A DNA stretch of 64,000 bases from Bacillota bacterium (GTDB lineage Bacteria > Bacillota > Clostridia > Clostridiales > Caloramatoraceae): positions 1-64,000 of the forward strand of contig JAEZLD010000048.1 of assembly GCA_023415335.1 (NCBI GenBank). Reading direction: 5' to 3'. How positions within the stretch are numbered: the stretch's first letter is position 1; each line of letters begins with the position of its first letter. Both the position numbers and the translations under genes were made by a program. Under the pieces are notes generated by a model. That model was not told where the DNA came from. It saw nothing but the letters and a program-made list of their open reading frames with translations, and made no database searches. Shown here one piece after another: positions 2,769-34,013 of this stretch.

Positions 2769-2801
2769 AAAAAAAGCTGCGAACTCATCACAGCTCACAG
2801 C
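2769..2801 (-). terminator. Rho-independent terminator of the WYL-pair operon (stop codon sits in the loop)
   Basis: The minus strand reads GCTGTGAGC-tgtgatga-GTTCGCAGC followed by TTTTTTT. Confidence 0.5.
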
Positions 2802-7357: not shown

Positions 7358-8917
7358 TCAGTATTTTCTCCTTGCTATATATTTATAAAAGGCATTTTCA
7401 TCAATATCGTAACTGTAGTAATTATATTTATAGTCATCTGGTATACCTTCTGCATATCTACTGGCATATGCCTCCAAAGACACCGCCTTGGACTTATCAT
7501 CTAATTTCAATATATCATCCCCTATGATAGAATCTGAGAATTCCCTCAGTGGATGAATAAGTCCTATTAAAACAGCTCCAATCAGACATATAGTGCAAAG
7601 CTTATATACAGCATTCTTCTTATGAAAGTCAATTGCAGATGCCTTATTCAGATAATCCAGAATCATTACAAGCATTATAAACAGACACGGTATACTGCAT
7701 CTCATGACAAAATCATTATATAAGCCCATATTAAAGAATGGTAATGCGACAAGCTCCACTACTGATATATAAAACAGAGGATTTCTCCTGTTTTGGATAA
7801 ACAAGCACACGGCATAAATTAATACCATTGTAAAAACAAATATAATGTACTTCCACCCATTCCCACCAGAATAATTGATTACAGAAAATTCCAAGGAATC
7901 TGACTTCTCACCGGTGATATTTCCATAAAAATATAAGAGAAGAACTGTTCCGAGAGTAGCGGTTAATGTAATGTTAGGCAGACTAAAGATCTGTTTTATC
8001 CATTTTTTTATATTCTTCTCCTTTAATAACATGTATACCGCCATTGTAAAGGCTGCTGGAAGTATCCCCACAAATGAAAACGTTCCAAACAAAATAGCTG
8101 GGAGCATCAGAGCCACATAATCTTCTATTTTTTCTTTATTCTCAATAAAAAGCAGGACAATAATCCAGATAGCTATCACCTGTGGGAACACCCACCTAAG
8201 CATCGTGTAGTTGCTTGAATATTGCAGACGGATTTCATTTTGATATATGAGCCAATGATATGAAGCTGCGCTGGGTTCTTCCAACGGGTACACAAGCTCT
8301 AAAAGCTTCTGTCCCAGCAAAAGTGGTCCACTAAAAAAACATAACAAAAATACAGTTAACTGCTGCATCCTGGTTGTTCTCACCTTGAGAATTTTTATGA
8401 GGTTTAGAAACACCAGTACAAGTCCTATTTCAGCCCAGACATAATTCACAATTTCAGCCATTCTATATGAGTGAAATATTTTACCAAAAGCAGCAGGCAC
8501 TAAATATTGAGCTATATAGTAGGTAAGCATGGAGTGCTCCTCTATACCCTCCCAAAGACCATTCACATAATATACAGGCCAGGCTTTATTTATAAGATCA
8601 GATAATACTGCATTGTGCTTAAACCAATCACTGGACTGGGATACAAACCTGCCCCATCCTGCATAATATCCTGTCATTAGAAGAAATAAAATAGCTATAA
8701 TCATTATCCAAGGACTTATTCTAAATTCTTGTGTTTTAGAGCCATTTTGCATATTATAATCCTTCAAAATACATCTAATCCCATATGTGGCAGCCAAGAT
8801 ACAAATTACTGCAATGGGTAGCTTTGTCCAGCCCAAAAGAAAAATAATAATCGGTATATAGATATAAGCCATAGAAACATAGAACAAGTTCTTATTTGTT
8901 ACAATCCATTCCCTCAT
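7358..8917 (-). CDS. Polytopic integral membrane protein of unknown function (>=10 TM helices; possibly glycosyltransferase/polymerase-like)
   Basis: The 519-aa ORF is very hydrophobic throughout. I recognise no catalytic motif. Confidence 0.55.
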   Translation of the reverse strand: MREWIVTNKNLFYVSMAYIYIPIIIFLLGWTKLPIAVICILAATYGIRCILKDYNMQNGSKTQEFRISPWIMIIAILFLLMTGYYAGWGRFVSQSSDWFKHNAVLSDLINKAWPVYYVNGLWEGIEEHSMLTYYIAQYLVPAAFGKIFHSYRMAEIVNYVWAEIGLVLVFLNLIKILKVRTTRMQQLTVFLLCFFSGPLLLGQKLLELVYPLEEPSAASYHWLIYQNEIRLQYSSNYTMLRWVFPQVIAIWIIVLLFIENKEKIEDYVALMLPAILFGTFSFVGILPAAFTMAVYMLLKEKNIKKWIKQIFSLPNITLTATLGTVLLLYFYGNITGEKSDSLEFSVINYSGGNGWKYIIFVFTMVLIYAVCLFIQNRRNPLFYISVVELVALPFFNMGLYNDFVMRCSIPCLFIMLVMILDYLNKASAIDFHKKNAVYKLCTICLIGAVLIGLIHPLREFSDSIIGDDILKLDDKSKAVSLEAYASRYAEGIPDDYKYNYYSYDIDENAFYKYIARRKY

Positions 8918-18580: not shown

Positions 18581-19608
18581 TTATTCCAAGCTGCAAACCG
18601 CTTCCCGAAGCATTCCCGCATATTCCGCCTTCACATGCTGGGGACCTTTAATCTTTACCTTTCCACCAAAACCAAACACCCAACTATAAAAGATGTGACT
18701 TACTGCAATATCTACAACGGCTCTAAATGAGTTCATGTCGTTTGCGTATGTAGTAACATCCTCGCCAAGCCGGTCAATAATGGAATCCATAACACTGTTG
18801 TCGCATATCAATTCAACTTCTTCATGCTCGCTGTTAAACATTAGGAATGTTATATAATGTATTCCTCAATATCAAATCCCTCTGGGGCAGGAGTTCCGTC
18901 TTCTTTCAAGATAACCGGACACTTAGCAATTAGGTCTACTCTAAAGCACCCAAGACGCTGTTTATTTTCGTAAACACCAATCATATAATAACAAGCACCA
19001 TTCCACACAAGATGAAGGGGCGTAATTGTGTACGGCTCACCATTGTGTTTCAATTTTTTCTCTTTTCATACATTGTATTGAAAATACTGTAAGGAGATTT
19101 TCTTGTTCGCGTTGATTGCATCGTTAATGGCATCAACAATAATGTAGATTCTTTCATTTCCAACCTTAATGCGGCCTTCACAGCTTACATTCCTTTTAAG
19201 ACTAGCAGCAGCATAAGATCCAGCCATAGAACTAAGTTTCTCAGCCAGTTCTTTGCTTTTGCTTGAATTTATGAATTTTGACGATTCAACAGCGTCAATC
19301 AATAATTTTAACTCTGGAATATCAAATTTTCGTCCAAATAGATTGTATCTATTCTGCGTAGATTTAACCTCTTCGATTTCAAACCCCAACTGCCTGAGCA
19401 GTTCAATCTCAGCTTTGATTGTTTGACGATGTGATCTGATTCCATATTTCTCCCCTAAAATTCGAATCAGCTGAGCAGTTGTAAGAAAATGCTCTTCGTC
19501 TATTTGCTCACATAAAATTTTTGCCAAGTACAACGGCCTTAATTTTGCGTTGTTATCCATTTGCCCACCTTCAATACAGATAAACATTTTACAGGTTGTA
19601 TCTGACAC
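18581..19608 (-). pseudogene. HTH-WYL-WCX transcriptional regulator (BrxR/CapW/PafBC-like), disrupted by an in-frame TGA and a frameshift
   Basis: It is split into three ORFs. The first is the HTH part 19608-19066. The second is the WYL part 19053-18850, with 'ITPLHLVWNGACYYMIGVYENKQRLGCFRVDLI'. The third is the WCX-like C-terminus 18841-18581, with 'FGFGGKVKIKGPQHVKAEY'. ORF1 and ORF2 are in the same frame across a TGA. ORF2 and ORF3 are in different frames. Confidence 0.65.
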
Positions 19609-19828: not shown

Positions 19829-20890
19829 TTATGCGTTGATTAATTCAGAGAAATCTCTGCAATTTTGAACATTTGAGACCTGAATTTCCACATTCAATCC
19901 CCCAGAGGATCGCAAAAACACCTGCCCATATAAGCATATTGGAAGCTGTCTGTTGTTGCTGTAACGGCGATCTGGCGTTCCGTTCTTATTAACAAACTGC
20001 CATGTATGTCCTACAACTTGAGCATCCTTCGGAACTCCTTCACTTTCAACAAATCTAACTTCAGAAGTTTGGACTCTAAAATCACTATAATCAATCATTC
20101 CCACTTTGCTTCCGCGTACAATGAAGACTTTATCAGGAAGAATAATCAACATTTCCTTCTTCAGTTTGATCTGTACAGTATCAATATTTGTATTGATGTA
20201 GAAGGGACGCCCTTTTTCGATTTGGCAAGGAATACGATTTAGGCTTCTCCCTGCACCAGCATGTAATTTCGTGTTCGAATTAAACTGCTCAGAAGTAATC
20301 TGCCACTCTTTTTTTCCTTCAGCCAGTAATTGCCATGCGCCAATTCTTCTGTCATGCTCATCTTTTGCTTCTGCATCAAAGGAATATTCCAATTCAACAC
20401 GGCCCGACTTGTGAGCCATGACCTTTAGAACAATACCAAGAACCAAAAGCAAGAAAAACACCGGCTGCGCAAATCCTAATAGAGAAAGCCAGATCAGCGC
20501 CGTACTCCATTTATTGAGTTTAATTGTTTTTTCTATAGTTTGAGAAATATTACCAGTCTCTGCAGCCTTAAATTGCTCAATACTTGCGCTTTCGATCGGA
20601 ATTTCTGCCTCATAATTGCTTGAAGGGTTGTAGTTTCCGGGATTGTAATTATTTCCTGAAGAGTTACCGTATCCTTGTGATCCGCCTCTTCTCCTTGAAT
20701 TTCGCTTTCCGGATTCATCAACATAAGATATTCCTGTTCCCGGAATAGAATATGTTCTTCTTGTTTTTCCGCTTGCTGTTTTTGTAATACGGTATCCTTT
20801 GGTACCCCAACTATATCCAATACCTGATTTGCTGAGATTGATCCTAAATCCCCCTCCAAGATTTATACTTTTTCTATATCTAAAGCCCAT
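19829..20890 (-). CDS. DUF4236-type N-terminal domain + single TM + C-terminal domain of unknown function
   Basis: The N-terminus 'MGFRYRKSINLGGGFRINLSKSGIGYSWGTKGYRI' matches the DUF4236 pattern. It is followed by a Gly/Asn/Tyr-rich linker and a hydrophobic helix 'LIWLSLLGFAQPVFFLLLVLGIVL'. Confidence 0.6.
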   Translation of the reverse strand: MGFRYRKSINLGGGFRINLSKSGIGYSWGTKGYRITKTASGKTRRTYSIPGTGISYVDESGKRNSRRRGGSQGYGNSSGNNYNPGNYNPSSNYEAEIPIESASIEQFKAAETGNISQTIEKTIKLNKWSTALIWLSLLGFAQPVFFLLLVLGIVLKVMAHKSGRVELEYSFDAEAKDEHDRRIGAWQLLAEGKKEWQITSEQFNSNTKLHAGAGRSLNRIPCQIEKGRPFYINTNIDTVQIKLKKEMLIILPDKVFIVRGSKVGMIDYSDFRVQTSEVRFVESEGVPKDAQVVGHTWQFVNKNGTPDRRYSNNRQLPICLYGQVFLRSSGGLNVEIQVSNVQNCRDFSELINA

Positions 20891-21625
20891 TCAAATAACC
20901 TCCTCAACTTCAATAAACACTACGCTAAGATCATCGTTTGAACCGTTTTTTAGGGCTTCTTCTATTATCTTATTGCACTTTTCTGTTGCTGCCATGTTTT
21001 GGATTAATGTGGCTTCCAGAAAATCAAGAGAAACATACTCATGAACACCATCTGAGGTGAGCAGATATTTTTTCCCTTTTGTAATAGATGAAACAGAGAT
21101 CTTTGCGGCGTAGTTTTCATTACCTCCACCTAAGCAACTAGTAATCTCATTCTTGTTACATAGTTCAGCTTCCTCATATCGTTGCATGCTACAAAGGTAG
21201 TTATAAACCGTATGATCCGATGTCAGCTGTTTTAAGTAATCGCCTTGCAACACATAAGCCCTGGTATTTCCCACATGAATAAGTTGATATTTCGTTTTGA
21301 AAAACAGGATCCCTGTTAGCGTCGTAGCCATATCCGAAAACTTGGGCTCCTGCTTTGCCTTTTCTAAAAGTGCAGTATTAATATCTAGGATCTCCGAACG
21401 AATATCAATACTCATGTCTATTGCAAGATCCCTTAAGGCATTTACAACAAAGTTTGATGCAACGGCACCACCGGCATTACCCCCAACACCGTCTGCAACA
21501 CAAACGATTCCACTTTGAACAGTGTCCAAAACCTGGCAACTATCCACAACAACATCTTTCCCAACAAGAACCGCGTCTTCGCTGGCTAATTTGTTTTTCC
21601 CAGCCTTTGTAACTACGCAGATCAT
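20891..21625 (-). CDS. PP2C-family Ser/Thr protein phosphatase
   Basis: It has the motifs 'VADGVGGNAGG', 'TSDGV' and 'NGSNDDLSVV'. Confidence 0.85.
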   Translation of the reverse strand: MICVVTKAGKNKLASEDAVLVGKDVVVDSCQVLDTVQSGIVCVADGVGGNAGGAVASNFVVNALRDLAIDMSIDIRSEILDINTALLEKAKQEPKFSDMATTLTGILFFKTKYQLIHVGNTRAYVLQGDYLKQLTSDHTVYNYLCSMQRYEEAELCNKNEITSCLGGGNENYAAKISVSSITKGKKYLLTSDGVHEYVSLDFLEATLIQNMAATEKCNKIIEEALKNGSNDDLSVVFIEVEEVI

Positions 21626-23517
21626 TAAATCGCCTCTTTAGTGCAGGTTAAAGCATACGGCATATTTTCAGCATCTATATCTTCAATCCTGATTCTGGCA
21701 TCGCCTTTCACGCCATGGTCAAACATATATCTTGCCAAAGGATTGATGAGTAAGCTTTCAACAAAGTTTCCGATTCCTCGACCACCGTTTGCAAGATTGC
21801 CCAACGCCTTTTCTTCCAAAATCTTCATAGCCTTTTCCGACAAAGTCAGCTCAATGTGTTTCTCTGTAACCAGGTTCCTAATAAGCTTATTAACCTGTGC
21901 CTCAAGGATAATCTTTGCTACAGGAGGACGAATGAAGTCAAAGACCACAATGTTTTCACCAATTCTATTCAGAATCTCAGGGCGTCCCAGCTCAAGTTTG
22001 AAATAATCCTCAATAGCCTGTCTTACGCGAGTTTGGACTTCTGAATATTCCATCTCCGCTGTAACATTGGGTTCTCTTACGCCAAGATTATTTCTTGTGT
22101 AAATTCCAAGGTTGCTAGTGAAGATTATGATACATTCAGAAAAATAAACCGTATTACCCTGGCCGTCCGTCATTCTACCATCTTCCAAGATTTGCAGGAA
22201 TTTATCGAAGATAGACGGATGTGCCTTCTCAATTTCATCAAACAGGAGGATAGAGAAAGGATTTTCCTTAACTGCGTTTGTTAGCTGGCCTCCTGCTTCA
22301 TATCCAACATATCCTGGAGGCGCTCCCAGCAATTTTTGGTCGCTGTGACTCTGGCTGTATTCACTCATATCAAATCGAATACAGCAGCTCTCGTCTCCAA
22401 ACAGTTTCTCGGCCAGCGTCTTTGCGGTTTCCGTTTTACCAGTACCAGTCGGTCCTGCAAAGAAAAGAATTCCCTTGGGCTTGGCGTGGGAAGAGCTCTG
22501 TAATCCAGCCATGCCGGTAACAGCTCGTTTTACAACATCCAGTGTTTTTATGATAGCAAAATCCTGACCTTTTACGCGCTTTTGGAAATCTGCGTGAGCT
22601 GTCTTTAATTCATTCTCATCAAGGGCATCCCAAGGATTCTCTTTAATTCCATAACGGTATAAATCAATTACCGATGCCATCTGTCTAATTCTGGTCTTTT
22701 CATTTTTACAAAGTCTTCTTAGCCCATTGATCTCAGTAAAGCTAAACCCTTCAGTAAGGCCTACAAATTTATCTTGAATCTTATCAAGTTCTTCCGGATG
22801 TTCTTGATAATAAGGAAAATCTTCATCATATACATCTGCAGCGAAAAAGCTCATGAAATTTTCTCCTTTAATGAGCCGTTCGCGTTCTTCTTTGGAAGGG
22901 GTTCCAAGGCTTATGGTCTTCACATTGGGATTATCCAAATAGAACCAAGCAGGAATATCGTTGACCTTATTAACGATCATTACAACAATATTTTTTAATG
23001 TCCCGTTTTCTGTACGGACATCCTTTCCTTCCATAGAAGATAGGATTAAGTTTGTGAAACTATCTACTTCAGATTGTTCTATTCCATCGGGAGTCGTAAT
23101 GTATCTTGAAGCAAGATTCATAACAATTGCAGTAGACTGTTTATTTTGATTTACAGCAGTTCTAATTATAGAAGTTGCTGAATTACTCTTTCCCTTAAAA
23201 TCACATCTTATGTATTTACCTTCAAGTTTTGCGTTTGCAATCTCAGCAAAAGACTCAACATGACCTTCCTCACAAGAATTATAAAATCCCTGCATGCTGT
23301 CAAAAAAGACAATCGATTGATATCCAAGGTCCTTAAAATAATAGTGCAGGTACTCAGGCAAGCGCAAAATGCTGCCTTTAGAAATGCTTCCCTCTGTAGG
23401 GTATTGATACACATCGAGAACATTGCCTTCGAGAATAATCAAGGGTTTGATTCTGCTAAAAATACCCAGTTCTCTGTGCCATTTTGGAATATATTCTTCC
23501 ATTTTCCTGCCTCCCAC
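21625..23517 (-). CDS. AAA+ ATPase with a ClpA/ClpB D2-like C-terminal module and a divergent ~330-aa N-terminal region
   Basis: It has Walker A 'GPTGTGKTETAKTLA', 'LLFDEIEKAH' and the sensor region 'IIIFTSNLG'. The N-terminal half is unrecognised. Confidence 0.8.
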   Translation of the reverse strand: MGGRKMEEYIPKWHRELGIFSRIKPLIILEGNVLDVYQYPTEGSISKGSILRLPEYLHYYFKDLGYQSIVFFDSMQGFYNSCEEGHVESFAEIANAKLEGKYIRCDFKGKSNSATSIIRTAVNQNKQSTAIVMNLASRYITTPDGIEQSEVDSFTNLILSSMEGKDVRTENGTLKNIVVMIVNKVNDIPAWFYLDNPNVKTISLGTPSKEERERLIKGENFMSFFAADVYDEDFPYYQEHPEELDKIQDKFVGLTEGFSFTEINGLRRLCKNEKTRIRQMASVIDLYRYGIKENPWDALDENELKTAHADFQKRVKGQDFAIIKTLDVVKRAVTGMAGLQSSSHAKPKGILFFAGPTGTGKTETAKTLAEKLFGDESCCIRFDMSEYSQSHSDQKLLGAPPGYVGYEAGGQLTNAVKENPFSILLFDEIEKAHPSIFDKFLQILEDGRMTDGQGNTVYFSECIIIFTSNLGIYTRNNLGVREPNVTAEMEYSEVQTRVRQAIEDYFKLELGRPEILNRIGENIVVFDFIRPPVAKIILEAQVNKLIRNLVTEKHIELTLSEKAMKILEEKALGNLANGGRGIGNFVESLLINPLARYMFDHGVKGDARIRIEDIDAENMPYALTCTKEAI

Positions 23518-23593: not shown

Positions 23594-24175
23594 TTACCCA
23601 CGATATGGGGTAAAGCCTGGCTTATGTATCCCCACAGAAACAATACCGTCTGTCGTCGTAAAATTTTGAATTCTGTTCCCATTTTCCCGTAAATACCAAT
23701 CATACAATCCGCGGTATTTCTCTTTTAAGATGTGAATCCTTTGATTGGTAGATCCACGCAAAACCAGACCAGCATTCTTTTCTTCAATATATGGTCCATC
23801 AACAAGAACTGCAATATAAGGCAGAATATCATTTGCTAGTGAGTTTGTTGCTGTGAATTCCTCGCGGGTATATCCAGTATAGACTAAAATGTCCTCAGAA
23901 ATATCATGAAGTTTCTTTAATAAATCAAGCAATTCTGATGCTTGATCCAGTGGTTCACCGCCAGAAATAGTAAATCCATCAATTGTATGGTCTGTAGCGA
24001 GTCTCTTAATCAGTTCTAAAAGCCTATCAACTGATATCTCATATTCTTCTTTCTGATTCCACAACTCCGGATTACTACAACCTTTGCAGGCGCGTTTACA
24101 ACCACAGAGCCATATACCAACTCTATTACCAGGACCCAAAACTTTTACGGGATACAATATTCTTGCTACATTCAT
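23594..24175 (-). CDS. Anaerobic ribonucleotide reductase-activating protein (NrdG)-like radical-SAM activase, orphan
   Basis: The match to NrdG runs along its whole length: 'KVLGPGNRVGIWLCGCKRACKGCSNPELW' (CxxxCxxC), 'ISGGEPL', 'VYTGYT', 'VLVDGPYIEEKNAGLVLRGSTNQRI'. No glycyl-radical enzyme is nearby. Confidence 0.85.
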   Translation of the reverse strand: MNVARILYPVKVLGPGNRVGIWLCGCKRACKGCSNPELWNQKEEYEISVDRLLELIKRLATDHTIDGFTISGGEPLDQASELLDLLKKLHDISEDILVYTGYTREEFTATNSLANDILPYIAVLVDGPYIEEKNAGLVLRGSTNQRIHILKEKYRGLYDWYLRENGNRIQNFTTTDGIVSVGIHKPGFTPYRG

Positions 24176-24783
24176 CTGTCCACCTTGAAAGTCAAATAAG
24201 CAGCAAGTTCTTGTCTCTCGCCATTAATCACTTTGCCACCAAGGCCAATCTCATCGCCTTCTTGCAATGCGGTCGGTACATCATTGTCAATGGGCTTATC
24301 GTTTACAAATGTTCTGTTTGTGGCACTCAGGTTTTCAATAAAAACCTTTCCAGCAACTATCGTCAATTTTGCGTGCTGACGACTAACATATGAACGCTGT
24401 TTCAAATAGTCCTTCAATTCGGCTTCCCGGCCTATAATCACAACTGGCGTATCAAAAGATTGAGAAAAATCACCACTAATTGAATCTAAAGAATATGAAA
24501 ACTTCTTCTCTTCATGTTTCGTAGGCCGAATATCTGAAATATCCTCTCCACATGTTTTACATTTTCGAGCTTGTGGAGGATTAATCGCACCACATTCACA
24601 AACTCTCGCCAAAGTTCCTTGCGATGCTGGTGGTTCTGTGGGAAGTTCCTTTTGAGCCTCTTCAAGAGCAGCATCCACAATACGAACTCCTGTTAGATCA
24701 CATTCACACTTTCGACACTCTAGCAAAACAGGCAGGTTGTTCTCACCACAGGAAGGGCAAACTTTATATTTCTCCAAAGCCAT
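24172..24783 (-). CDS. Double zinc-ribbon + FHA domain protein
   Basis: It has CPSCG...CRKCEC and CECG...CKTC ribbons. The C-terminal FHA region shows 'VIIGREAE...SRQHAKLTIVAGKVFIENLSATNRTFVND'. Confidence 0.8.
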   Translation of the reverse strand: MALEKYKVCPSCGENNLPVLLECRKCECDLTGVRIVDAALEEAQKELPTEPPASQGTLARVCECGAINPPQARKCKTCGEDISDIRPTKHEEKKFSYSLDSISGDFSQSFDTPVVIIGREAELKDYLKQRSYVSRQHAKLTIVAGKVFIENLSATNRTFVNDKPIDNDVPTALQEGDEIGLGGKVINGERQELAAYLTFKVDR

Positions 24784-26150
24784 TACTCATTCTCCCTTCG
24801 CATTGTTTTTGTGGCAGAACGCTTTTTCCTTCTTCTCGTTGCCATTTCAGTAATTTGTTTACTACTGTGAATTTGATAATCGTTTACATTAATGATTGCT
24901 GCATATTCTGCAGCAGGAGGCGACATTTCAATACGCGTTCCCACAATGACGCCCTTTTCCTTTAGTCTTCTTTCAATCTCTGCAAACTCACCGCAAAAGG
25001 TTTCCATATCTTCCGTTAATTCTCCCACCTCTTCTTCATTGGGGAGCCGGTCTTCATGAGCTATGCCACCAAGTTCCATTGCTATTTGACCATCCGAAGA
25101 AAAGGTGACATTGACGGCAGTACCTTCATCAAAAGAATACAATTCATTTCTAAATTTCTTTCCGCTTTTCTTCTTTACTTCGCGGGAACCCAACAGTTCA
25201 TATCCCATTTCGGAAAGAACCTCTTCCACACAATCACTGATATATTCCTGTTCGCGCTGTTTGACCGCTAACAACTCTATCCTTTCAACTTCTTTTTCTA
25301 TTGTTTCAATCTCTGCAGATCTAAACAAATCAACATTGGACTGGACTCCGGTCAATTGACAAAGCACCTCATATCTATCAAGGAGATCTTTACGCAACTT
25401 TTCTTCTTCTTTTTTCTGCTCCTTGATAAGAGAACTTTTCGCTTCGAGAGCTCTAATAGTTAAACTAGAGAAGGTATGTAGATAATCTATGGACACAATA
25501 CGCCCAAGCGAATTCATTGCCTCCCCAATCTCTTCTTTCAAAGAATTAGGACATTCTTTATCAAGAAACATTGCCTTCAACTTTGCTTCCAGCTCAGTTC
25601 GCTCCGTCTCCAAAGCATCCACTTCAACTGGAGCGCTGAAGTCCAAATAAACATATGCTGCAAGGTCCTCCGCTATACTATCTTGTGCCGTATTTTCAAG
25701 TTTTTCCACAACAACAGTAGCTTGCTGGATTGGTTTCTCTATCTCTTTTTGTAGAGCTTCAACATTCTGCTTAATCTTCCTGATCGCAGCAAGCTGTTGT
25801 TTTTTCTCAGCAAGAGCTTCCTCGCTAATTTGATATTTTTCACTCAAATGAGGTCGATGAGATTGAAGATCCATAAGCAATTCGGTTGACTCCTTCTCTA
25901 TGACACCCAGCATTTCTTGCAAGGACGCCACACAGTTACCATCAACCTCACAGCGCTCATTCAAAAGTTTTAGCCGTGTGAGCAACTCCTCGATAGTTCC
26001 TCTACATCCTAATATGTATGAAACACCTAACTCAATTTGATTAGCACACGATATGCTTTGCTGTTCACAGCGCATTTGTCCGTTGACATTAGCCCGTGCC
26101 CAGCCAGATAATTCATAAACAGATATTTTAGGACCACTCATCCAAATCAC
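24783..26150 (-). CDS. Coiled-coil protein of unknown function
   Basis: It has long heptad-rich E/K/L segments and is translationally coupled on both sides. Confidence 0.55.
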   Translation of the reverse strand: MIWMSGPKISVYELSGWARANVNGQMRCEQQSISCANQIELGVSYILGCRGTIEELLTRLKLLNERCEVDGNCVASLQEMLGVIEKESTELLMDLQSHRPHLSEKYQISEEALAEKKQQLAAIRKIKQNVEALQKEIEKPIQQATVVVEKLENTAQDSIAEDLAAYVYLDFSAPVEVDALETERTELEAKLKAMFLDKECPNSLKEEIGEAMNSLGRIVSIDYLHTFSSLTIRALEAKSSLIKEQKKEEEKLRKDLLDRYEVLCQLTGVQSNVDLFRSAEIETIEKEVERIELLAVKQREQEYISDCVEEVLSEMGYELLGSREVKKKSGKKFRNELYSFDEGTAVNVTFSSDGQIAMELGGIAHEDRLPNEEEVGELTEDMETFCGEFAEIERRLKEKGVIVGTRIEMSPPAAEYAAIINVNDYQIHSSKQITEMATRRRKKRSATKTMRRENE

Positions 26151-26160
26151 CTCAACTCAA

Positions 26161-27852
26161 CTATTCATTCATCAACATTCGCCACTTATCAATTTCTTTC
26201 TTCTTGCCAATCGCAATTAGCCATGTCTCAAGCTGCACATCTAAATTGCCATCATAATCAACAAGTCTATGACATAAGGTCTCAAATTTATCGAAAGACA
26301 AATCCAAACACTCTCTCATGTATCCTGCCAGTTCGCCAACTGTACGGAACTGCTGGTTATCCAGCAGCAATAATTTTTGTCCTGACAAGGTATATGCCAT
26401 ATAATAATAGGTGCGAAGCAAATCCGAATGTTTGCCTTTCTCTAATACATAAGAATCTTCAATGGCTGCCGTAGCCTTTTTAAGAGCTTCATTCTTTGGA
26501 GACACCTGCATTACATACTGAGTTAAAAGTTTTTCATTCAAAACGCTTTCATAATACTTGTACTGAGATTTATCGTGTTTCCAAAGCTTTTCGAGAACAT
26601 CTCGGCCAAATGCGGGAAGACTTTCATACACTTCACCCTTCCAATAGAAGCCCTTCAATTTCGGGTTCAAGCGATACAGCAGTTTCCAAAAAATAATATC
26701 ATCTTTTCCATTAGAGCGGCTGGCTTCCTCTTCAGCTTCCATGCATTTTTTCGCTGCCTCTTGATCAAAAACTCGAAAATGTGCTGATAAAAGGCCTCGG
26801 AAAAGATGTTTCTTTCCTTCGTTCCAGTTCTTTGCCAGAGACGCAGCAAGCCCTTCTATGCTGGTTATTTCTTCGTTTAGGAAATGGTAAATAGGCATAT
26901 TTCCTTTGCCTACATTTCCAATTCCTTCACCAGGGATGATAAGGCTTTCACCGTTGATCCACTTTACAACCTCTTCGTATGTCCAGCGGCGATTTGGATT
27001 GTTTTTGTTTTTGCGATAACTGATATCATAATATGTCAATGCAGAAATAAAATCTTGCAAAAGCACGGGCATGCTTTCCGGAAACGGTATTCTTTGAACG
27101 GATACATATTGTTCAATCTCTTCCGGTTGCATATTTGCATATGGAGTATATCCACAAAAAAGCTCAAACAGCGTTATGCCAAAAGAGTAATAGTCAGATC
27201 CCTCATAAAAAATATTCTTAAAAGTCTCTGGTGCTGAATACTCAGGTGTCATGCCTGTTTTCGTCACAAGAAGAGTATGTTTATCATCAACAGCGGAACT
27301 GATTCCAAAATCGATAATGGACACAGTTTTACCATCATCATTTAACATAATATTAGATGGTTTAAGATCTTTGTGAATAATTCCTGCCTGATGGATCGCA
27401 TGTAGCCCCTCATTAATGTTGGGAATAATACTTTCAACCAATTCCTCATAGTTAAATGTTTTTCCTTGCAAACTTCCATTTTTGTAGTAAGGAATAATTT
27501 CTACAGGAAAACCATTATGTTTTGCTGTTTCATGAAGCTTTGCAACATAAGGTGAATTGATGCTCAGTAACGCCTTAATCACATCTTCCTTGATTGCGAA
27601 TTTCCTCTTGTAAATCTTCGCAATATACTTTTTCCCATCATTCGAGCAAATATACAAATCAGCTTCTCCAGAGGCAACCTCCAATCGTTCTTCAATTGTA
27701 TACTTGTCGCAAATTATTGTTCCGCGATCAATCAAATCCTCTTGTCTACTGATAGAGTCGATTTGATTGCCATACTGCTGGACGAGCTCTGAATTAATCG
27801 CAGTCGGTGCTGATTCTATGATATTAGGATTAATTACTGTACGATTATCCAC
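26161..27852 (-). CDS. Hanks-type Ser/Thr protein kinase with a ~270-aa C-terminal domain of unknown function
   Basis: It has 'YIAKIYK' (beta3 Lys), 'HKDLKPSNIML', 'DFGIS' and 'TPEYSAPE'. Confidence 0.85.
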   Translation of the reverse strand: MDNRTVINPNIIESAPTAINSELVQQYGNQIDSISRQEDLIDRGTIICDKYTIEERLEVASGEADLYICSNDGKKYIAKIYKRKFAIKEDVIKALLSINSPYVAKLHETAKHNGFPVEIIPYYKNGSLQGKTFNYEELVESIIPNINEGLHAIHQAGIIHKDLKPSNIMLNDDGKTVSIIDFGISSAVDDKHTLLVTKTGMTPEYSAPETFKNIFYEGSDYYSFGITLFELFCGYTPYANMQPEEIEQYVSVQRIPFPESMPVLLQDFISALTYYDISYRKNKNNPNRRWTYEEVVKWINGESLIIPGEGIGNVGKGNMPIYHFLNEEITSIEGLAASLAKNWNEGKKHLFRGLLSAHFRVFDQEAAKKCMEAEEEASRSNGKDDIIFWKLLYRLNPKLKGFYWKGEVYESLPAFGRDVLEKLWKHDKSQYKYYESVLNEKLLTQYVMQVSPKNEALKKATAAIEDSYVLEKGKHSDLLRTYYYMAYTLSGQKLLLLDNQQFRTVGELAGYMRECLDLSFDKFETLCHRLVDYDGNLDVQLETWLIAIGKKKEIDKWRMLMNE

Positions 27853-27854
27853 CT

Positions 27855-30800
27855 TTAAACACCTCCAACCACAGTAACCTTATCGTCGATTACATTAATT
27901 TTCTCATTTGCAATCAGTTTTTCAAGAGCTCTTGCCATTGCTACATTGATTTTCTCACCGCGTCTTGAATATCCAATTGCCCTTGTTGTTTCTTCAATGA
28001 GTGCTTTTGTGCTAAGTCCAAATGTGTTAGAAGCAACAGCTATCATAGCAAGCCCCAATTCATCTGTAGAAATAAGGTTAATCGCTCTTTGATTGTATCC
28101 ATCCTCAGGAATACGCACTTTGAGATTATCAAAACCTTTAAGGGTGACAAAATCATCTTTAATCTCCAGCCGTTGTCTGCCCGCTGTGGTATTCATTGCC
28201 ATATCAACCATGCGACGCACCAGACTCGTTACCTTTTGATTACCAAAAGCACCCGCCATTCTCTGGTACAACAAATCCTTATGTATCGGCTGCTCAATAC
28301 CGACAATATAAACTATCCTTGTTAATACTTCGGTCATATTGTCGTATGTGTTTGGCATTGGTGCATCCCACCAATTGGCCTCCACATAGCGTTCAAATCC
28401 ATACGGATTATCCTCGTCGCAATTAATGCCACCACGGTTTTGTGTACCTTTATAAGATTCCTCCGTAACTTCTTCAACCATACTAGACAAATCTTCTTGC
28501 AATAATTTCTTCTGCTCAGGTTCTTCAATTTTAACAGCAGTATGTTCGGATGCATCCTGTATAAACGAGAGGAGTTTAGCTCCTTCCACCTCGGGATTAA
28601 TATACCACTCTGCAGACCATACTCTGTACATATTCCAACCCATGGAATTCAGCACAGATCTTCTCAGATGATCTCTATCTCGTGCTGTATGAGCAGAAAC
28701 ATAAGAGTAACCATCACACTCAATACCTGCAATATATTTGTCTTCATCGTTACGATCCACAACGGCAATATCAATACGATAACCAGAACAACCAACATAC
28801 TTTTTGATAGTATATCCATTCTTTTCTACAAATTCCCCAACCATATCGACAAAGCGATCCTGCCCTTGTACATTTCTAGACGAGGCTAACGCAACTGCGC
28901 CATTCATAGCAAACTCAATGTACGAGCGTAACATTCTGATGCCTTCTGATTCTGTTCTGGAAAGATCAATATCGGAAGGAAGAATAGAACTAATAAGCTT
29001 TATGTTTCGCTTTGCTCTAGTAATCGCAACATTTAGTCTTCGCTCACCGCCTTGGTGTCCAAGAGGGCCAAATCGCATGTGCATCGGGCGCCCAGATTCC
29101 TTTTGATCCTTTGTTTGCGCATAACAAATACTAAAGAAAATCGTGTCGCGTTCATCGCCCTGAACATTTTCCAGATTCTTTACAAAGAACTCTTCTTCAT
29201 TACCTTCCTTGAAGAAGAATTCATATTCCGGATTTTGCTCTCTAAACCGCTGCACTTCCAAAGAAATCTGTTGCTGTTGCTTTTCGCTGAAGGCAATGAT
29301 TCCCAGGGATCTGTCCGGATGCTTATCAATATGCTTCTTGATTAATTCAACACACCGCTTAGCCTCTGCAACATTACAGTTTCTACCGCCGCCTTCATAA
29401 TATCCATCTTCAACATATTCGAACTCAACACCACAATCCTCTTCGTGTTCCACGCTACTTGGGAAAGTGACCAATTCATTCTTGTATATCTCTTGATTAG
29501 AAAAGGCAATGAGATGCTCGTGCTTGCTTCTATAATGCCAAAGCAATGTACGATTTGGCAGCACACTTGCGGTTTCTTCCAGAATAGAATCGTAAACAAT
29601 ATCTTCGTATTCATCATCAGAATCAAAAGCGTCGGAATCATTGCTTGTACTCGTAGCAAAGAAATTTGTAGGAGGCAACTGTTTTGTATCACCAGCAATG
29701 ATAACCTGCTTTCCTCTGAAAATAGCACCAATTGCATCTTGTGGGAATATCTGTGAAGCCTCATCAAAAATAACCATATCAAATTGGTAGGAGTCTGCTT
29801 CAAGGAAATAAGCCACAGACAAAGGGGACATCATCAAACATGGTTTTAATGTCAGCAACAAATTGGGAATTGATCTAAAGAGCATTCTCAAAGGCATAAT
29901 GCGACGCTTTTTTCCCATTTCTCTTTGAAGCACCTGCAACTCATCTTTTGCTGTTGTGACTCTGTTGGTATCAGGAAATCTGCTAATTATTTTCTCGCGG
30001 ATTCTCATCTGTGCAACAGATAGCTGCTTAGTATCCAATTCCACAAAGCGTTCCAGCTTCGCCTCTTGAGTTCTTCTACGGAAACTTTGGACAGCCGGAG
30101 ATTTATCCATTGCCATAGTAATCCAGAGTTTATAAAACTGTTTTTCAAAACAAGCCTTAATTTCACTTGCCGGAACTACACCTTCGGAAATCAAATCAAC
30201 ATATTTCTTTAGTCCTGCATTAACACACTCAGCAGTTGTTTCTCGATAATCAATCCACTGGTCCAAAGAATTGACATTGCTTCGGCAAGCAGAAACTTTC
30301 TCATTGATTCTTGCAATTTCACTTTGTTGCAAGGAAGCTCCATATTCAAACAACGAAGCAAAGTAGCTAATAGGCTCTTCTACTGGAGCAAGAAGAAGTC
30401 TTATATCTGTAGTTGCAGCTTCCAGATTGTTTCTTTCCGCTTCACTATTACAGTATGTACGGATAAATCCGGGCGCAGCAATGCTGAAGCTGTTGTTTTC
30501 AAACAAAGAATTCACAGCTTCAATATCATCAATTAGTTCTGCCCACTTAGTGTCAATTCCAGCATAGCGCTCTCCAAACAAAAACACTAAGCTGTCTTCA
30601 TTTTGTGCCAGTGACAGTCTATAGTTTCTTGCACTATTAGCCGTATTAATGTTTTCAACAAGCTCTGCCATTGCATCTTCGCAGGTGGCAAATCTCCGTA
30701 TATATTCAACGGAAGAATTCAGTCCATTAGTATGCTTGCTCAAGAACAGAATCCTCTGTAGTATTTCGTCATTCGTAGTTGCAAAAACAGGATCCTTAAA

Positions 30801-33800
30801 GTCTGAGGAAATATTATTGAGTTTAACAGAAAGTGAATCTAGCCTTTCCTCTAAAAGTACACTTACAGCAGATGCAATCTGTTCTAATTGGTCAGAATGA
30901 ACATCCTTATTGCTTAAGATATTAATAAGAACTTCGGGCACTCCAGTTTCTCCAAAGCAATTCTTCAACTTTCGGACCATATCAAAGGCATCTAACAAGC
31001 TTTGCCACGGGGTATCCACATCATCATAACGTGAACCCAAAACCACATCAAAACGATGCTTATTTTCTTCAAACCATAGCTGTTCTGCTTTGAATGCCTT
31101 GATTTGCTGTAGCAGGGAAATAATCATTGCATCATTGATTTTTCCACCGATTGTTCTGCAAACAGCTCGAATAGTTTTAATGTCCTCTTTGTATGCTGCT
31201 TTGAATATCTTAAAGAAATTCACATACTCTGTTTTGAAACGCAACAGCATTCCGTCAACATCGATTTTGAAGACATCTTCTTCCCATTGATCCAAAATAG
31301 CTTTTTTGATACCCAGGTATGTTTGTGCATGGGACTGTCCTTGGGTAATCAATTTTTTAGCCTCGGCTGCTATCTCGTCATTAAACCATTCACGCTTAAC
31401 GGTATTTGTGTTAAGCACAGCCCTGGCAACAGCTCCTGTCTCTTTGATTGCATTGAAGTTTTCACCAAAATTGATACCTAACATAGATTTTATACATACA
31501 TAAGCGTTATACACTTCATTCCATTCTTGTTCAAGTGAATTTGCGTATACTTTAAGCTGGCTAATGCCTCCAATAATGTCTGCTTCGGAAGACTTTTTAT
31601 AGTTACCGCACTTTCTGATGTTGTCTAGTGATTCTCGGACAGAATCTATCCAAGCCTGTAAATCTTCATCCAAAATACTCTCCACAAACAAAGCTTTCAC
31701 TTTGTCAAGGCATGCCAAATACTGCTGCTGTTTTTCTTTTTCTTCTACAGCAACAGTGCGAAGTTTATGACGCCGCTGGACCTGTGCCCATTCCTCAGGG
31801 AACAACGGAGCGACAACAAACATTTCCAAAAACTCCGCCATCTTTTTGGCCCCACTAAGGGTACGTTCTCCAGACAGGCCGAGACGGGCATGAATTTCAT
31901 GTAGAGTGTCATTAAGCTTTGCAAGCTGGTCTTCGAGCAAGTGGGTTTTTTGTATAAAACTGTTTTTTAAGCTTTGACTTGCTTGGGTAATTGTTGTTCC
32001 GTTCCACGGATGTTCTTCTAGCTTCATTCCCAGCGCTAAAAGAGCTTTTTCCATATTTGCAACACAATACATCATGGCATTATATTGGGAAGAAGTCACA
32101 GAATGAATATCGTCAATTTCAAACTGGATTTCCGGAACAGAATCCAAAATAGAATATTTACCAAAGGCGGTATATAAGCTTTCTCCCAATGGTTCAATTT
32201 CACTGTGGAGCTCTTCTGCATATGCATTAAGATGTTTGCGATCATGGAAAAGTTCATCCAGCTCTATAACAACAGAATCCTTAACTCTCTGGTGCGGAAG
32301 TTTTAGGTTGGCTCCAATGTTTTCCAGAATATCTTTTTTGTTTGCTTTGTGGCTATGGAGAGCTAAGCAGAAATCCTCCAGTTGCACTTCAGTTAATCTC
32401 TTCAAAACAACTTGAAGGGCGGCGGCCTTTTCAGAAACAAACAAGATTTTCTTTCCATCAGCCAATCCTTCGGCAATAATATTAGTAATTGTCTGACTCT
32501 TGCCTGTACCAGGAGGGCCTTGCATAACGAAGCTAACCCCCATCTTAGATAGTAAAATTGCTTCTTGCTGACTTGAGTCTGCGTTAACCACTTGATACCA
32601 ATCGCGGGGTGAAACATCATCAAAGGCAAAATTCTGATATGATGCAGGAATTTGATTTGCTGAAGATACATCTCCCGCGATAGCCCTCAAAGTAGGACTA
32701 CTCATCATTCGGGCACGGTGATTGTTGAGATCATGGTACATGCTGATCTTCAAAAAGGACAACAAACCCATGCTCACTTCACGGATAATTTTCCATCCTC
32801 GCTTGTCAACAATCTCTTCAATCTGCTGCAAATATTGCTGGATTGATGACTCATCCTTCAACTCAAATGTAGGCAAATCTAAACCATACTGCTCGTTGAA
32901 CAAATAGTCCAGCGTAGGATTTACCTCAATTTCGTCATCATACCGACTCAGTGTGTACGGAGAGTGTATGGATTCTAATCCAAGTGTTACCGGCATCATC
33001 AGTAATGGAGATTTGAGCCATGGAGAAGAATCCTTGCTATTTTCTTTCCACTCGACAAAACCAAATGATATGTACAAAATGTTTGTACCTTGTTCATCCT
33101 TGGCTAACTTAGCTTTATTTCTTATATTGCGTAGTGTTCTTTGCCTTTCGACAATAGAGCCTTCCGTTTTAATGTCTCCAACATGAACAGGGAGAGGATA
33201 AGACAATGTTTCCAGCAACGAAAGAACAGAAAATGTTCTTAAATCCGAATCCTTATCAATCGGTCTTTGGAATGTAAGTTCCTCTTCACCAATAGCCAAT
33301 CTGTTAAACAGTTCAGAAAAACCCGGTTCAATAATCCGCAAAGTGGAAAGTTTTGTCTCTCGATAATTAATCATTCGATTGCGCTTACCAAGATCCAATA
33401 GCTGATGCTTCCAAAAATCAATTCGTTTATCTAATGTTTCCAGATCATCTGCTCTAACATGGATACCATCCATTGCATCAGGAAGTTTTTTTCCATCAAA
33501 AGCATTTTCAACATGCTCAACACTTGCTTCTCCCCTCTGAGTTGACTCCACCGTTGACGTTATTGTTTCAACTGGAGAATCATTTCTTACCACTCGTCCC
33601 TCTGGAGCAAAGTTTTCTGTTTTGCCTGCTTCGACAGCAGCCTGCTGCGTCTGAGTAGTAGACGCAGGAACTGGAGTAGATTCAACAGCTCGAACCGGAA
33701 CCTGGTTTTGTTGTGCTCTCACTTCGTTTATCCTCTTTGCACTCAAATAATTCTCTTTGGCAGCATCGTTGTAAGATGCTGGGTTGGATGAATACCGGCT

Positions 33801-34013
33801 GAACGCTGATACCCATTGTGTATTCCCCAAAGTAGAGCAACGCGTAAAAGCGTTGTTGCAAACAGGACAAGTATGAGGTTTTGCCAAATTTATATAACTG
33901 TTATTAGAAAATCCATTAGCAATAATTTGTCTACTTATTCTTGCACAAATAGGGCAAATGACCGTAGGAACTCTTGAACCGTTTGAACAATTTAAGATGA
34001 TTAAATCCACCAT
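27855..34013 (-). CDS. Giant (2052 aa) zinc-ribbon + DUF4011 + SF1 (Upf1/DNA2-like) helicase + DUF3320 + DUF559/Vsr-like PD-(D/E)xK nuclease protein (Hhe-like)
   Basis: It has Walker A 'VMQGPPGTGKSQTITNII' and motif II 'VIFDEASQ...GDTKQLPP'. The C-terminal nuclease region shows 'YRIDIAVVDRNDEDKYIAGIECDGYSYVSAHTARDRDH'. The N-terminus carries CPIC...CPVC ribbons. Confidence 0.85.
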   Translation of the reverse strand: MVDLIILNCSNGSRVPTVICPICARISRQIIANGFSNNSYINLAKPHTCPVCNNAFTRCSTLGNTQWVSAFSRYSSNPASYNDAAKENYLSAKRINEVRAQQNQVPVRAVESTPVPASTTQTQQAAVEAGKTENFAPEGRVVRNDSPVETITSTVESTQRGEASVEHVENAFDGKKLPDAMDGIHVRADDLETLDKRIDFWKHQLLDLGKRNRMINYRETKLSTLRIIEPGFSELFNRLAIGEEELTFQRPIDKDSDLRTFSVLSLLETLSYPLPVHVGDIKTEGSIVERQRTLRNIRNKAKLAKDEQGTNILYISFGFVEWKENSKDSSPWLKSPLLMMPVTLGLESIHSPYTLSRYDDEIEVNPTLDYLFNEQYGLDLPTFELKDESSIQQYLQQIEEIVDKRGWKIIREVSMGLLSFLKISMYHDLNNHRARMMSSPTLRAIAGDVSSANQIPASYQNFAFDDVSPRDWYQVVNADSSQQEAILLSKMGVSFVMQGPPGTGKSQTITNIIAEGLADGKKILFVSEKAAALQVVLKRLTEVQLEDFCLALHSHKANKKDILENIGANLKLPHQRVKDSVVIELDELFHDRKHLNAYAEELHSEIEPLGESLYTAFGKYSILDSVPEIQFEIDDIHSVTSSQYNAMMYCVANMEKALLALGMKLEEHPWNGTTITQASQSLKNSFIQKTHLLEDQLAKLNDTLHEIHARLGLSGERTLSGAKKMAEFLEMFVVAPLFPEEWAQVQRRHKLRTVAVEEKEKQQQYLACLDKVKALFVESILDEDLQAWIDSVRESLDNIRKCGNYKKSSEADIIGGISQLKVYANSLEQEWNEVYNAYVCIKSMLGINFGENFNAIKETGAVARAVLNTNTVKREWFNDEIAAEAKKLITQGQSHAQTYLGIKKAILDQWEEDVFKIDVDGMLLRFKTEYVNFFKIFKAAYKEDIKTIRAVCRTIGGKINDAMIISLLQQIKAFKAEQLWFEENKHRFDVVLGSRYDDVDTPWQSLLDAFDMVRKLKNCFGETGVPEVLINILSNKDVHSDQLEQIASAVSVLLEERLDSLSVKLNNISSDFKDPVFATTNDEILQRILFLSKHTNGLNSSVEYIRRFATCEDAMAELVENINTANSARNYRLSLAQNEDSLVFLFGERYAGIDTKWAELIDDIEAVNSLFENNSFSIAAPGFIRTYCNSEAERNNLEAATTDIRLLLAPVEEPISYFASLFEYGASLQQSEIARINEKVSACRSNVNSLDQWIDYRETTAECVNAGLKKYVDLISEGVVPASEIKACFEKQFYKLWITMAMDKSPAVQSFRRRTQEAKLERFVELDTKQLSVAQMRIREKIISRFPDTNRVTTAKDELQVLQREMGKKRRIMPLRMLFRSIPNLLLTLKPCLMMSPLSVAYFLEADSYQFDMVIFDEASQIFPQDAIGAIFRGKQVIIAGDTKQLPPTNFFATSTSNDSDAFDSDDEYEDIVYDSILEETASVLPNRTLLWHYRSKHEHLIAFSNQEIYKNELVTFPSSVEHEEDCGVEFEYVEDGYYEGGGRNCNVAEAKRCVELIKKHIDKHPDRSLGIIAFSEKQQQQISLEVQRFREQNPEYEFFFKEGNEEEFFVKNLENVQGDERDTIFFSICYAQTKDQKESGRPMHMRFGPLGHQGGERRLNVAITRAKRNIKLISSILPSDIDLSRTESEGIRMLRSYIEFAMNGAVALASSRNVQGQDRFVDMVGEFVEKNGYTIKKYVGCSGYRIDIAVVDRNDEDKYIAGIECDGYSYVSAHTARDRDHLRRSVLNSMGWNMYRVWSAEWYINPEVEGAKLLSFIQDASEHTAVKIEEPEQKKLLQEDLSSMVEEVTEESYKGTQNRGGINCDEDNPYGFERYVEANWWDAPMPNTYDNMTEVLTRIVYIVGIEQPIHKDLLYQRMAGAFGNQKVTSLVRRMVDMAMNTTAGRQRLEIKDDFVTLKGFDNLKVRIPEDGYNQRAINLISTDELGLAMIAVASNTFGLSTKALIEETTRAIGYSRRGEKINVAMARALEKLIANEKINVIDDKVTVVGGV

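Follow-up and report, generated by a model that had tools for sequence, protein, structure and literature searches.

A glycyl-radical-activase-like radical-SAM enzyme without a glycyl-radical enzyme partner is a fixed part of a conserved, defence-like gene system

To our knowledge, every characterised activase of the NrdG or pyruvate formate-lyase-activating enzyme (PFL-AE) type serves a metabolic glycyl-radical enzyme (GRE). On what, then, does such an enzyme act when no GRE is encoded beside it? The question is raised by a 64,000-nucleotide stretch of contig JAEZLD010000048.1 from a bacterium of the Bacillota (the whole stretch is hereafter called the window). Its minus-strand gene at positions 23594..24175 encodes an NrdG/PFL-activase-like radical S-adenosylmethionine (SAM) enzyme of 193 amino acids (aa) with an ATG start, composed of a core (residues 1-166) and a tail (residues 167-193); the plus-strand frame of the same interval contains many stop codons. 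The protein is called the rSAM enzyme below. The original prediction described it as an orphan activase, the target of which would be encoded elsewhere or would be non-canonical. The present analysis places the gene in a conserved multi-gene system, and we assign a probability of about 0.5 to the reading that the rSAM enzyme is a protein-directed radical enzyme acting inside this defence-like system.

The Pfam matches of the rSAM enzyme were Fer4_12 (E 8.5e-32, residues 12-148) and Radical_SAM (E 8e-10). Among the NCBIfam families, the top one was NrdG (TIGR02491), with 118.3 bits over residues 8-149, about 8 bits short of the curated cut-off of 126.1 bits. The score for PRK11121 was 80.9 against a cut-off of 199, and the models for the PFL activase and other glycyl-radical activases scored far below NrdG. 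At E < 1e-5 there were 2433 database homologues, a match far beyond chance; the best 120 of these were 187-212 aa long and, save one at 99%, showed 58-68% identity. The motifs named in the original prediction were all present, namely C26-x3-C30-x2-C33, S71-G-G-E-P, T99-G-Y, V124-D-G-P-Y and R139-G-S-T-N-Q, together with a loop of the GxGxR type, G14-P-G-N-R18. The core size and the motifs CX3CX2C, GPGxR, GGEP, TGY, DGxY and RGSxNQ are common to NrdG and the rSAM enzyme, which shares descent with NrdG and PFL-AE. The GPGxR loop touches the substrate peptide in PFL-AE (3CB8).

The cysteine triad, the loss of which in orthologues would have told against the original prediction, was conserved to at least 95% among 79 related sequences, as were GGxP and RGSxNQ; GPGxR was likewise kept at this level in the family, and the G and R of the loop were invariant throughout the wider clade. 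A profile search of 1.84 billion representatives gave at least 257 clusters (50% identity) at E <= 1e-30. Motifs and tails were counted in the best 150 of the 257 cluster representatives, 134 of which were N-terminally complete; CX3CX2C and GG[ED]P were kept in 133 of these 134. Judged by motif conservation, the rSAM enzyme is catalytically intact.

In the AF2 model (mean pLDDT 79, pTM 0.80), the core was mostly confident up to about residue 166, and the partial TIM-barrel fold, CX3CX2C and the GGE motif place the protein in the radical SAM superfamily. The top folds found by Foldseek in the Protein Data Bank (PDB) were those of PFL-AE (8fo0, 3cb8 and 3c8f; E 6e-5 to 3e-4), and PFL-activating enzymes were the only solved relatives by sequence. 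PFL-AE (3CB8 / 8FO0), the closest solved structure, has the same partial TIM-barrel and binds a Gly-containing peptide. The core of the rSAM enzyme, however, is about 50 aa shorter, and the identity over the aligned structure is 21-25%. There is also no PFL-type partner here, and the candidate glycine discussed below is N-terminal, whereas that of PFL lies in a buried C-terminal finger loop.

The next-best fold after PFL-AE was QueE (5th5, E 9e-4), with viperin-like enzymes further down the list. QueE is, like the rSAM enzyme, a small Fer4_12-type radical-SAM enzyme, but its substrate is a pterin-like small molecule and queuosine genes were not nearby here. This ranking speaks for an alternative in which QueE- or viperin-like chemistry on a nucleotide or SAM would yield an antiviral analogue, or a signal controlling the helicase-nuclease or the AAA+ protein of the operon. 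The sequence argues otherwise. Affinity lies clearly with the protein-activating NrdG and PFL-AE families, the QueE matches in NCBIfam were marginal (TIGR04349, E 9.5e-4; TIGR03963, E 5.6e-3; 16-19 bits against cut-offs of 260-300), and the loop that contacts the substrate peptide in PFL-AE is conserved. The part of this alternative that depends on the partner genes is taken up after they have been described.

What separates the rSAM enzyme from canonical NrdGs, apart from the score below the cut-off, is an extra conserved C-terminal tail of about 40 aa. The clade-specific part, residues 167-193 (N-R-IQNF-T-DG-SVGIH), follows RGSxNQ and lies past the end of the NrdG model; the family consensus, N-x-IQNF-x-T-x-x-G-x-x-SVGIH, is conserved to at least 95%. 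The match extended through the tail in 86 of the 134 N-terminally complete representatives. The tail was alignable across Clostridia, Rhizobium, cyanobacteria, Actinobacteria, Bacillus and Treponema, and one of like shape (beta-strand, DG turn, beta-strand, Gly, often then a helix) was present in relatives at 30-39% identity, the distant tail-bearing ones coming from Rhizobium, Geminocystis, Rhodococcus, Paenarthrobacter, Bacillus cereus and Treponema. The tail is the best conserved but also the sole low-confidence region of the AF2 monomer (residues 167-192, pLDDT < 50), a pattern that fits a segment which becomes ordered on a partner.

No such tail was found in Escherichia coli NrdG, and the conserved 40 aa were likewise missing from the nrdD-adjacent NrdG of Bacillus mycoides (149 aa). 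Among the plasmid matches listed and annotated as nrdG (from Bacillus, Clostridioides, Clostridium, Lactococcus, Lactiplantibacillus, Eubacterium eligens, E. coli and Vibrio, among others), the alignment stopped at query residue 146-164, with two exceptions: a 'putative' nrdG of Arthrobacter (CP017423.1) aligned to 181 and one of Klebsiella (NZ_CP129856.1) to 185. By comparison, matches annotated '4Fe-4S single cluster domain' that were checked in contexts unrelated to ribonucleotide reductase (RNR) aligned to residue 171-187. Identity to canonical Firmicute NrdGs was 31-40%, against 51-68% within the rSAM enzyme's own family. With its tail after RGSxNQ and a neighbouring AAA+ gene, the rSAM enzyme belongs, on sequence grounds, to a large clade separate from the nrdD-linked NrdGs. 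Clade members came from gut, rumen and environmental samples, lay in plasmid-borne and defence-island settings and were annotated '4Fe-4S single cluster domain-containing protein'; in some sources they carried the label 'anaerobic ribonucleoside-triphosphate reductase activating protein' (P0083; Arthrobacter CP017423.1).

No glycyl-radical partner was found. A PFL/NrdD-type domain was absent from the operon proteins and from ten other large open reading frames (ORFs) of the window, and the PROSITE glycine-radical signature PS00850, [STIV]-x-R-[IVT]-[CSA]-G-[YFW], matched nothing in the window's six frames, nor any of the operon proteins from 90 related loci. NrdD was likewise absent from the window and from +/-10 kb in the 90 related loci. 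The rSAM gene thus has neither the nrdD linkage of an NrdG gene nor the glycine-radical partner of a GRE activase. In the canonical comparison, by contrast, B. mycoides nrdG adjoins nrdD. The statements of the original prediction that the locus contains no GRE partner and that the operon proteins contain no RVSGY-like motif are borne out by these searches. The Zn-ribbons of the neighbouring FHA protein were considered as a mimic of the C-terminal Zn-ribbon and Gly loop of NrdD, and this idea was rejected because no conserved glycine follows either ribbon.

The gene is nevertheless not an orphan, as had been proposed. From look-ups and a metagenome scan, 89 loci were collected, in which 79 of the rSAM sequences are distinct, and neighbours were counted where the flank sufficed. 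A Zn-ribbon/FHA gene stood directly upstream of the rSAM gene in 67 of 68 loci, a coiled-coil gene was present in 53/53 and an AAA+ gene in 39/39; a kinase was found in 41 of 44, a PP2C in 30 of 32, a helicase-nuclease in 24 of 32 and a DUF4236 gene in 18 of 32. The order of the block is kinase, MSGPK coiled-coil protein, Zn-ribbon/FHA protein, rSAM enzyme, ClpB-D2-type AAA+ protein and PP2C, usually with a Hhe/ProA-like helicase-nuclease upstream. The genome of Pelotomaculum schinkii carries the block in identical order, and in Aristaeella lactis the system is on a plasmid. The rSAM gene is an obligate, fixed part of a conserved accessory system.

Between the rSAM and AAA+ genes, 21 loci carry an insertion of one to three tandem genes, all from one family; the window has none. 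Most inspected inserted genes encode an N-terminal helix followed by variable BspA-type LRR_5 repeats (for example at L003 10585-11286, L065 5825-8762 and L017 3302-5158), and they may be interchangeable sensor or effector modules. Genes for McrBC, NADAR, nucleases and MobA were among the neighbours of related loci. A scan of IMG/VR viral contigs gave no family member. As a separate observation, some loci carry a small PC4-like gene (ssDNA-binding fold) between helicase and kinase (L001 5919-6161, L003 5932-6180, L006 5922-6164); the window has no such gene, and helicase and kinase genes abut there.

The synteny bears directly on the possibility that the enzyme is a housekeeping or spare NrdG which serves an nrdD elsewhere on the chromosome and sits in the operon by accident. 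NrdG is indeed its best-scoring family, just 8 bits below the cut-off. The host, moreover, is probably an anaerobic sporulating Firmicute, as suggested by spoIIE in the window and by the clostridial origin of related loci, and such a host probably uses class III RNR. Against this, the synteny is invariant in 79 distinct loci, none with nrdD, whereas canonical nrdG normally adjoins nrdD. The clade tail and the lower identity to canonical Firmicute NrdGs described above point the same way. In addition, copies are found on plasmids, and Rhizobium, Rhodococcus and Paenarthrobacter, all taken here as aerobes without class III RNR, also have relatives of the enzyme. The housekeeping explanation is the sole rival that the data, drawn from the window and the related loci, strongly disfavour, and we consider it very unlikely. 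The same facts, an obligate position in the system, a tail-bearing clade distinct from nrdD-linked NrdGs and plasmid-borne copies, tell against the branch of the original prediction that placed the target elsewhere. They favour the other branch, a non-canonical substrate, and the comparative data point first to the coiled-coil protein.

In the window the system occupies the minus strand as an operon with tight or overlapping junctions. The first gene (27855..34013) encodes an SF1 helicase-nuclease of 2052 aa with DUF4011, AAA_11/AAA_12, MTES_1575 REase-like and DUF3320 domains. Its scores were 1303 bits for NCBIfam ProA (cut-off 1500), 882 for Hhe (cut-off 2000) and 1400 for PADLOC PDC-S37. 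Since it falls short of the ProA and Hhe cut-offs, it is a relative and not a member of these families; it is a probable nucleic-acid-directed effector or sensor. The second gene (26161..27852) encodes a Hanks-type Ser/Thr kinase of 563 aa (Pfam Pkinase, 7.9e-31) with a conserved C-terminal domain without assigned function, and matches the PADLOC mad6 and PD-T4-6-type kinase models. It is followed by the gene of the MSGPK coiled-coil protein (24783..26141; 452 aa from the ATG at 26141), a candidate substrate or scaffold of the rSAM enzyme, and that of a protein in which two Zn-ribbons are combined with a phosphothreonine-binding FHA domain (24172..24783; 203 aa; Pfam FHA, 5.3e-14, and DZR; conserved CxxC pairs). 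The stop codon of the latter overlaps the start codon of the rSAM gene by 4 nt (ATGA), an arrangement for translational coupling.

Downstream of the rSAM gene lies that of the AAA+ unfoldase (21625..23502; 625 aa), of ClpB/ClpC D2 type, in which Walker A/B are intact and the pore loop reads GYVG. Its N-terminal region of about 265 aa is highly conserved without known function, and the whole is the most conserved protein of the system (56-88% identity). A PP2C-type Ser/Thr phosphatase (20891..21625; 244 aa; Pfam PP2C_2, NCBIfam Stp1-type, 1.8e-39) and a DUF4236 protein (19829..20890; 353 aa; Pfam DUF4236, 6.5e-22), a frequent but non-obligatory last gene, complete the operon.

Further downstream, also on the minus strand, a disrupted HTH-WYL-WCX regulator of BrxR/CapW type (18581..19608) is split into three ORFs (19066-19608; 18850-19053, WYL 1.5e-4; 18581-18841, WCX 4.5e-8). 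It is therefore an apparent pseudogene, and the system may be deregulated here. Housekeeping genes flank the operon, with an ABC transporter to one side and lysS, greA, ftsH, tilS and spoIIE to the other. The stretch between lysS and the helicase contains terminator-like hairpins and promoter-like sites, at a site density no higher than in shuffled sequence, and no anomaly of base composition was seen across the island. Elsewhere in the window, a second minus-strand gene pair (2788-4937) encodes a protein of 413 aa with a WYL domain and one of 303 aa that matches WCX weakly. Near this pair, at 5148-5843, is a gene for a flavodoxin-like FMN reductase; a flavodoxin-type protein could in principle give electrons to a radical-SAM enzyme. 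A minus-strand ORF of 519 aa outside the system (7358-8917) had no Pfam match at E 0.1.

The translational coupling of the rSAM gene, together with a conserved tail that appears to depend on a partner, suggests a tight complex. This would suit a protein that merely binds its Fe-S cluster and SAM, either as a sensor of SAM level, redox or Fe-S status in infection or as a scaffold, with little or no turnover. Phage SAM-degrading enzymes are known counter-defences, and the presumed aerobic hosts make sustained radical chemistry harder, both of which are in keeping with a sensor. The cluster cysteines, GGEP and RGSxNQ, however, are under strong purifying selection (at least 133/134 representatives), beyond the needs of binding. 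We regard a sensor or scaffold as quite unlikely and return to the reading of an active, protein-directed enzyme.

Should the enzyme act on one of the system's own proteins, the coiled-coil protein offers the most attractive site. Its N-terminus, MSGPK, did not vary in either of two alignments (32 and 33 sequences) and is followed by x-S-x-Y-x-L-T; an independent gene caller likewise begins the protein at MSGPK. No Pfam or PDB sequence match was found for it. The AF2 model shows a beta-strand near the N-terminus, then long coiled coils, and at the C-terminus a beta4-alpha-beta head, and the head (the strand of residues 1-11 plus about 300-420) appears KA1-like in this model, the listed matches being Snf1 and SOS2 regulatory fragments and the KA1-like domains of METTL16 and TUT1. 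KA1 is a kinase-regulatory module in eukaryotic kinases (Chk1, MARK and AMPK relatives). Separately, it was observed that the gene with this KA1-like head directly follows the Ser/Thr kinase gene. A comparison of the head with DUF1257 by hhalign found nothing. The N-terminal Ser-Gly was modelled as an unstructured stretch before the first strand and is therefore probably exposed, and Ser-Gly is the core of the PFL site RVSGY. Because it is invariant, probably exposed and equal to the core of the PFL site, this Ser-Gly is the best candidate in the system. Gly3 itself as the site of hydrogen abstraction must be called tentative, and we would not bet on it. The other invariant glycine, G313 ('EMGY'), was considered as a glycyl-radical loop and rejected, as the AF2 model puts it at a turn from helix to strand and not in a hairpin.

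The clade extends to loci with other architectures. Rhizobium leguminosarum and Caballeronia carry a ClpB-like AAA+ protein, the rSAM enzyme, a kinase::helicase fusion of 2086 aa and a protein of about 450 aa that starts with MSGPK. In the R. leguminosarum locus (L092 10647-16907), the ProA/Hhe-like helicase-nuclease carries the kinase as an N-terminal fusion, which ties the kinase and helicase functions of the system together. Six-frame translations of ten non-clostridial loci contained two matches to MSGP[KR], both at the start of the equivalent ORF (Rhizobium and Caballeronia). The equivalence of the clostridial and proteobacterial coiled-coil proteins is based on this motif, on architecture and on operon position.

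On plasmids of Rhodococcus, B. cereus, Paenarthrobacter and Paenibacillus polymyxa, a second type of module was found. It comprises a classical AAA ATPase and a protein of 124-151 aa, which in P. polymyxa is annotated as DUF1257, along with DUF2997, in some cases an HhH protein, and an rSAM enzyme that bears the tail (L094 4252-7989; L095 8980-12789; L096 4564-8257; L103 5682-8549). In cyanobacteria, DUF2997 and DUF1257 have been reported beside the ferredoxin Fed7 (PMC4284462). Treponema succinifaciens has an rSAM and an AAA gene within a contractile-injection-system cluster. In a further case (P0378; L105 854-2305, 483 aa), a tail-bearing rSAM enzyme is fused to a SpoVK/CbbX-type AAA domain on one metagenomic contig, where a gene-calling artefact is possible; its neighbours encode a 496-aa coiled-coil protein starting with (V)SGRK, an AAA-AAA-trypsin protein and a DO-GTPase1. 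Among these contexts, the clade members of Rhizobium, Rhodococcus and Paenarthrobacter, with their AAA+ partners, are plasmid-borne. The pairing of rSAM enzyme and AAA+ protein is the most general feature of the clade contexts. Since the AAA+ partners are drawn from three different AAA+ families, unfoldase activity would seem to be what is needed, rather than a specific modification site on the ATPase. This speaks against a conserved site on the AAA+ protein, the N-terminal domain of which was one of the two possible targets named in the original prediction.

These partners also bear on the small-molecule alternative raised by the QueE fold. Nucleotide-acting radical-SAM enzymes are known in defence (viperins and Ophion), nucleic-acid-binding partners recur (helicase, PC4 and HhH), and the protein partners have no recognisable glycyl-radical motif. 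On the other hand, genes of nucleotide metabolism are not among the constant partners, which consist of an unfoldase and a coiled-coil protein, and the helicase is lacking from 8 of 32 loci as well as from systems of the fusion and DUF2997 types. Together with the sequence affinity given above, this makes chemistry on a nucleotide or SAM unlikely, if still worth serious attention.

A related possibility is that the enzyme abstracts hydrogen directly from the sugar or base of DNA or RNA presented by the helicase, and thereby damages or marks the invader. The associated SF1 helicase-nuclease, the PC4-like ssDNA-binding genes and, in relatives, HhH proteins would suit such a role, and DNA-acting radical-SAM enzymes exist, for example spore photoproduct lyase. 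The rSAM enzyme, however, does not resemble the radical-SAM families that act on DNA or RNA. It is a very small protein that lacks a domain for binding nucleic acid, and the helicase is dispensable in a quarter of the loci. Attack on nucleic acid thus appears decidedly improbable.

A protein substrate inside the system would be compatible with the following mechanism. The reduced [4Fe-4S] cluster would cleave SAM, and the resulting 5'-deoxyadenosyl radical would take a hydrogen atom from one of the system's own proteins and not from a metabolic GRE, most likely at the invariant N-terminal Ser-Gly of the coiled-coil protein. The rSAM enzyme would dock via its conserved C-terminal hairpin tail onto the KA1-like head of that protein, and the AAA+ unfoldase would present, remodel or reset the substrate. 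The kinase, FHA protein and PP2C would gate the step, with threonine phosphorylation read by FHA and erased by PP2C, and the output would be exerted by the helicase-nuclease or by other modules, among them the variable LRR ones. The complete chain, in which the activase installs a radical or a radical-derived modification on the Ser-Gly of a KA1-like scaffold with AAA+ assistance and under kinase/FHA/PP2C control, so arming the helicase-nuclease and other effectors, is speculative, and that all its links hold is improbable.

Several observations weigh against this reading, in part or as a whole. No partner protein among the operon proteins of the 90 loci contains a GRE-like RVxG[YFW] motif, the invariant G313 sits in the KA1-like head at a helix-to-strand turn in the model, and a small-molecule enzyme, QueE, ranks second among the fold matches. 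The clostridial coiled-coil proteins showed no significant similarity to those of Rhizobium, Caballeronia and L105 when compared by HMM and hhalign. The MSGPK protein is absent from the AAA/DUF1257/DUF2997-type systems, so that a single universal substrate motif does not exist. The occurrence of members in presumed aerobes makes a long-lived, O2-labile glycyl radical unlikely as the end product in general; a modification derived from a radical, or else an event that is transient or suicidal, would be equally plausible. The tail of the rSAM enzyme resembles the N-terminal hairpin of DUF2997 (in B. cereus, KRVKIRILPDGTVQAETKG of DUF2997 against NRLEIRLHPDGTISANGMA of the rSAM tail). This likeness is only suggestive: hhalign aligned the two in register over 43 columns with P 0.0012 and a probability of 20%, and a Pfam DUF2997 match was absent in ten tails. 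As to defence, PADLOC-DB v2 has no model for the rSAM, FHA and coiled-coil proteins and gave no DUF4236 match either, the matches of the system being generic kinase and AAA models and PDC-S37 only; it is the genomic context that suggests a defence role.

This context nonetheless agrees with the defence-like setting that the original prediction had recognised. The points in question are the PDC-S37/ProA/Hhe matches of the helicase, the defence-type neighbours, the WYL remnant and the variable LRR inserts, and the system is probably directed against phages or mobile elements.

The system was then compared with known ones. Prokaryotic viperins are radical-SAM enzymes in defence loci, where they act as single-gene systems and make ddh-nucleotides. 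Viperins and OpnA of Ophion resemble the present case in bringing radical-SAM chemistry into anti-phage loci, but they belong to other radical-SAM families, and the partners here are an unfoldase, a coiled-coil protein and a phospho-switch. Ophion, in which the rSAM enzyme pairs with PHP and PRTase, is unrelated to the present system. The DUF4011-family systems Hhe and ProA (PDC-S37) share with the operon's first gene the architecture of DUF4011, SF1 helicase and MTES_1575; they are single-protein systems, whereas the helicase here stands in an operon of at least six genes and is absent from a quarter of the related loci.

The cast of kinase, FHA protein, PP2C and Clp-type AAA+ protein recalls the switch of type VI secretion (PpkA, Fha1, PppA PP2C and ClpV), and the FHA and AAA+ proteins gave weak matches to the TagH and ClpV models. 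There are, however, no secretion genes here, the hosts are Gram-positive, and the rSAM enzyme, coiled-coil protein and helicase are extra, so that the resemblance would be a functional analogy only. In the case of NrdG, finally, the difference lies in the neighbourhood as well as in the tail and score: in the loci examined, the rSAM gene stands beside FHA and AAA+ genes and never beside nrdD.

In the literature that could be searched we found no description of the system; a recent description is possible, and the source paper of the NCBIfam entry 'ProA' was not located. An Aravind-lab survey of NTP-dependent conflict systems places a radical-SAM effector in a different, FtsH/vWA context. A pair of DUF4011 and radical-SAM genes is reported to flank the right side of Pseudomonas aeruginosa cDHS1 (PMC10250203). 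What is new here is an enzyme of GRE-activase type whose set of partners does not include a GRE, within a multi-gene system that is so far uncharacterised.

The meaning of these findings lies first in the clade itself, which is large, retains all catalytic residues and yet has swapped the GRE partner for AAA+ unfoldases and novel proteins. In practice, the label 'reductase activating protein' on such genes should not be taken as evidence of class III RNR. If the rSAM enzyme indeed acts on one of the system's own proteins, it would represent a new class of post-translational control by radical chemistry, which may serve anti-phage immunity. Were this true, glycyl-radical-activase chemistry would have moved from metabolism into immunity, and the system would provide the first protein-radical switch in defence or signalling and the first GRE-type activase with a non-GRE substrate. 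With one small enzyme, one invariant N-terminal motif and one unfoldase, it offers a testable case.

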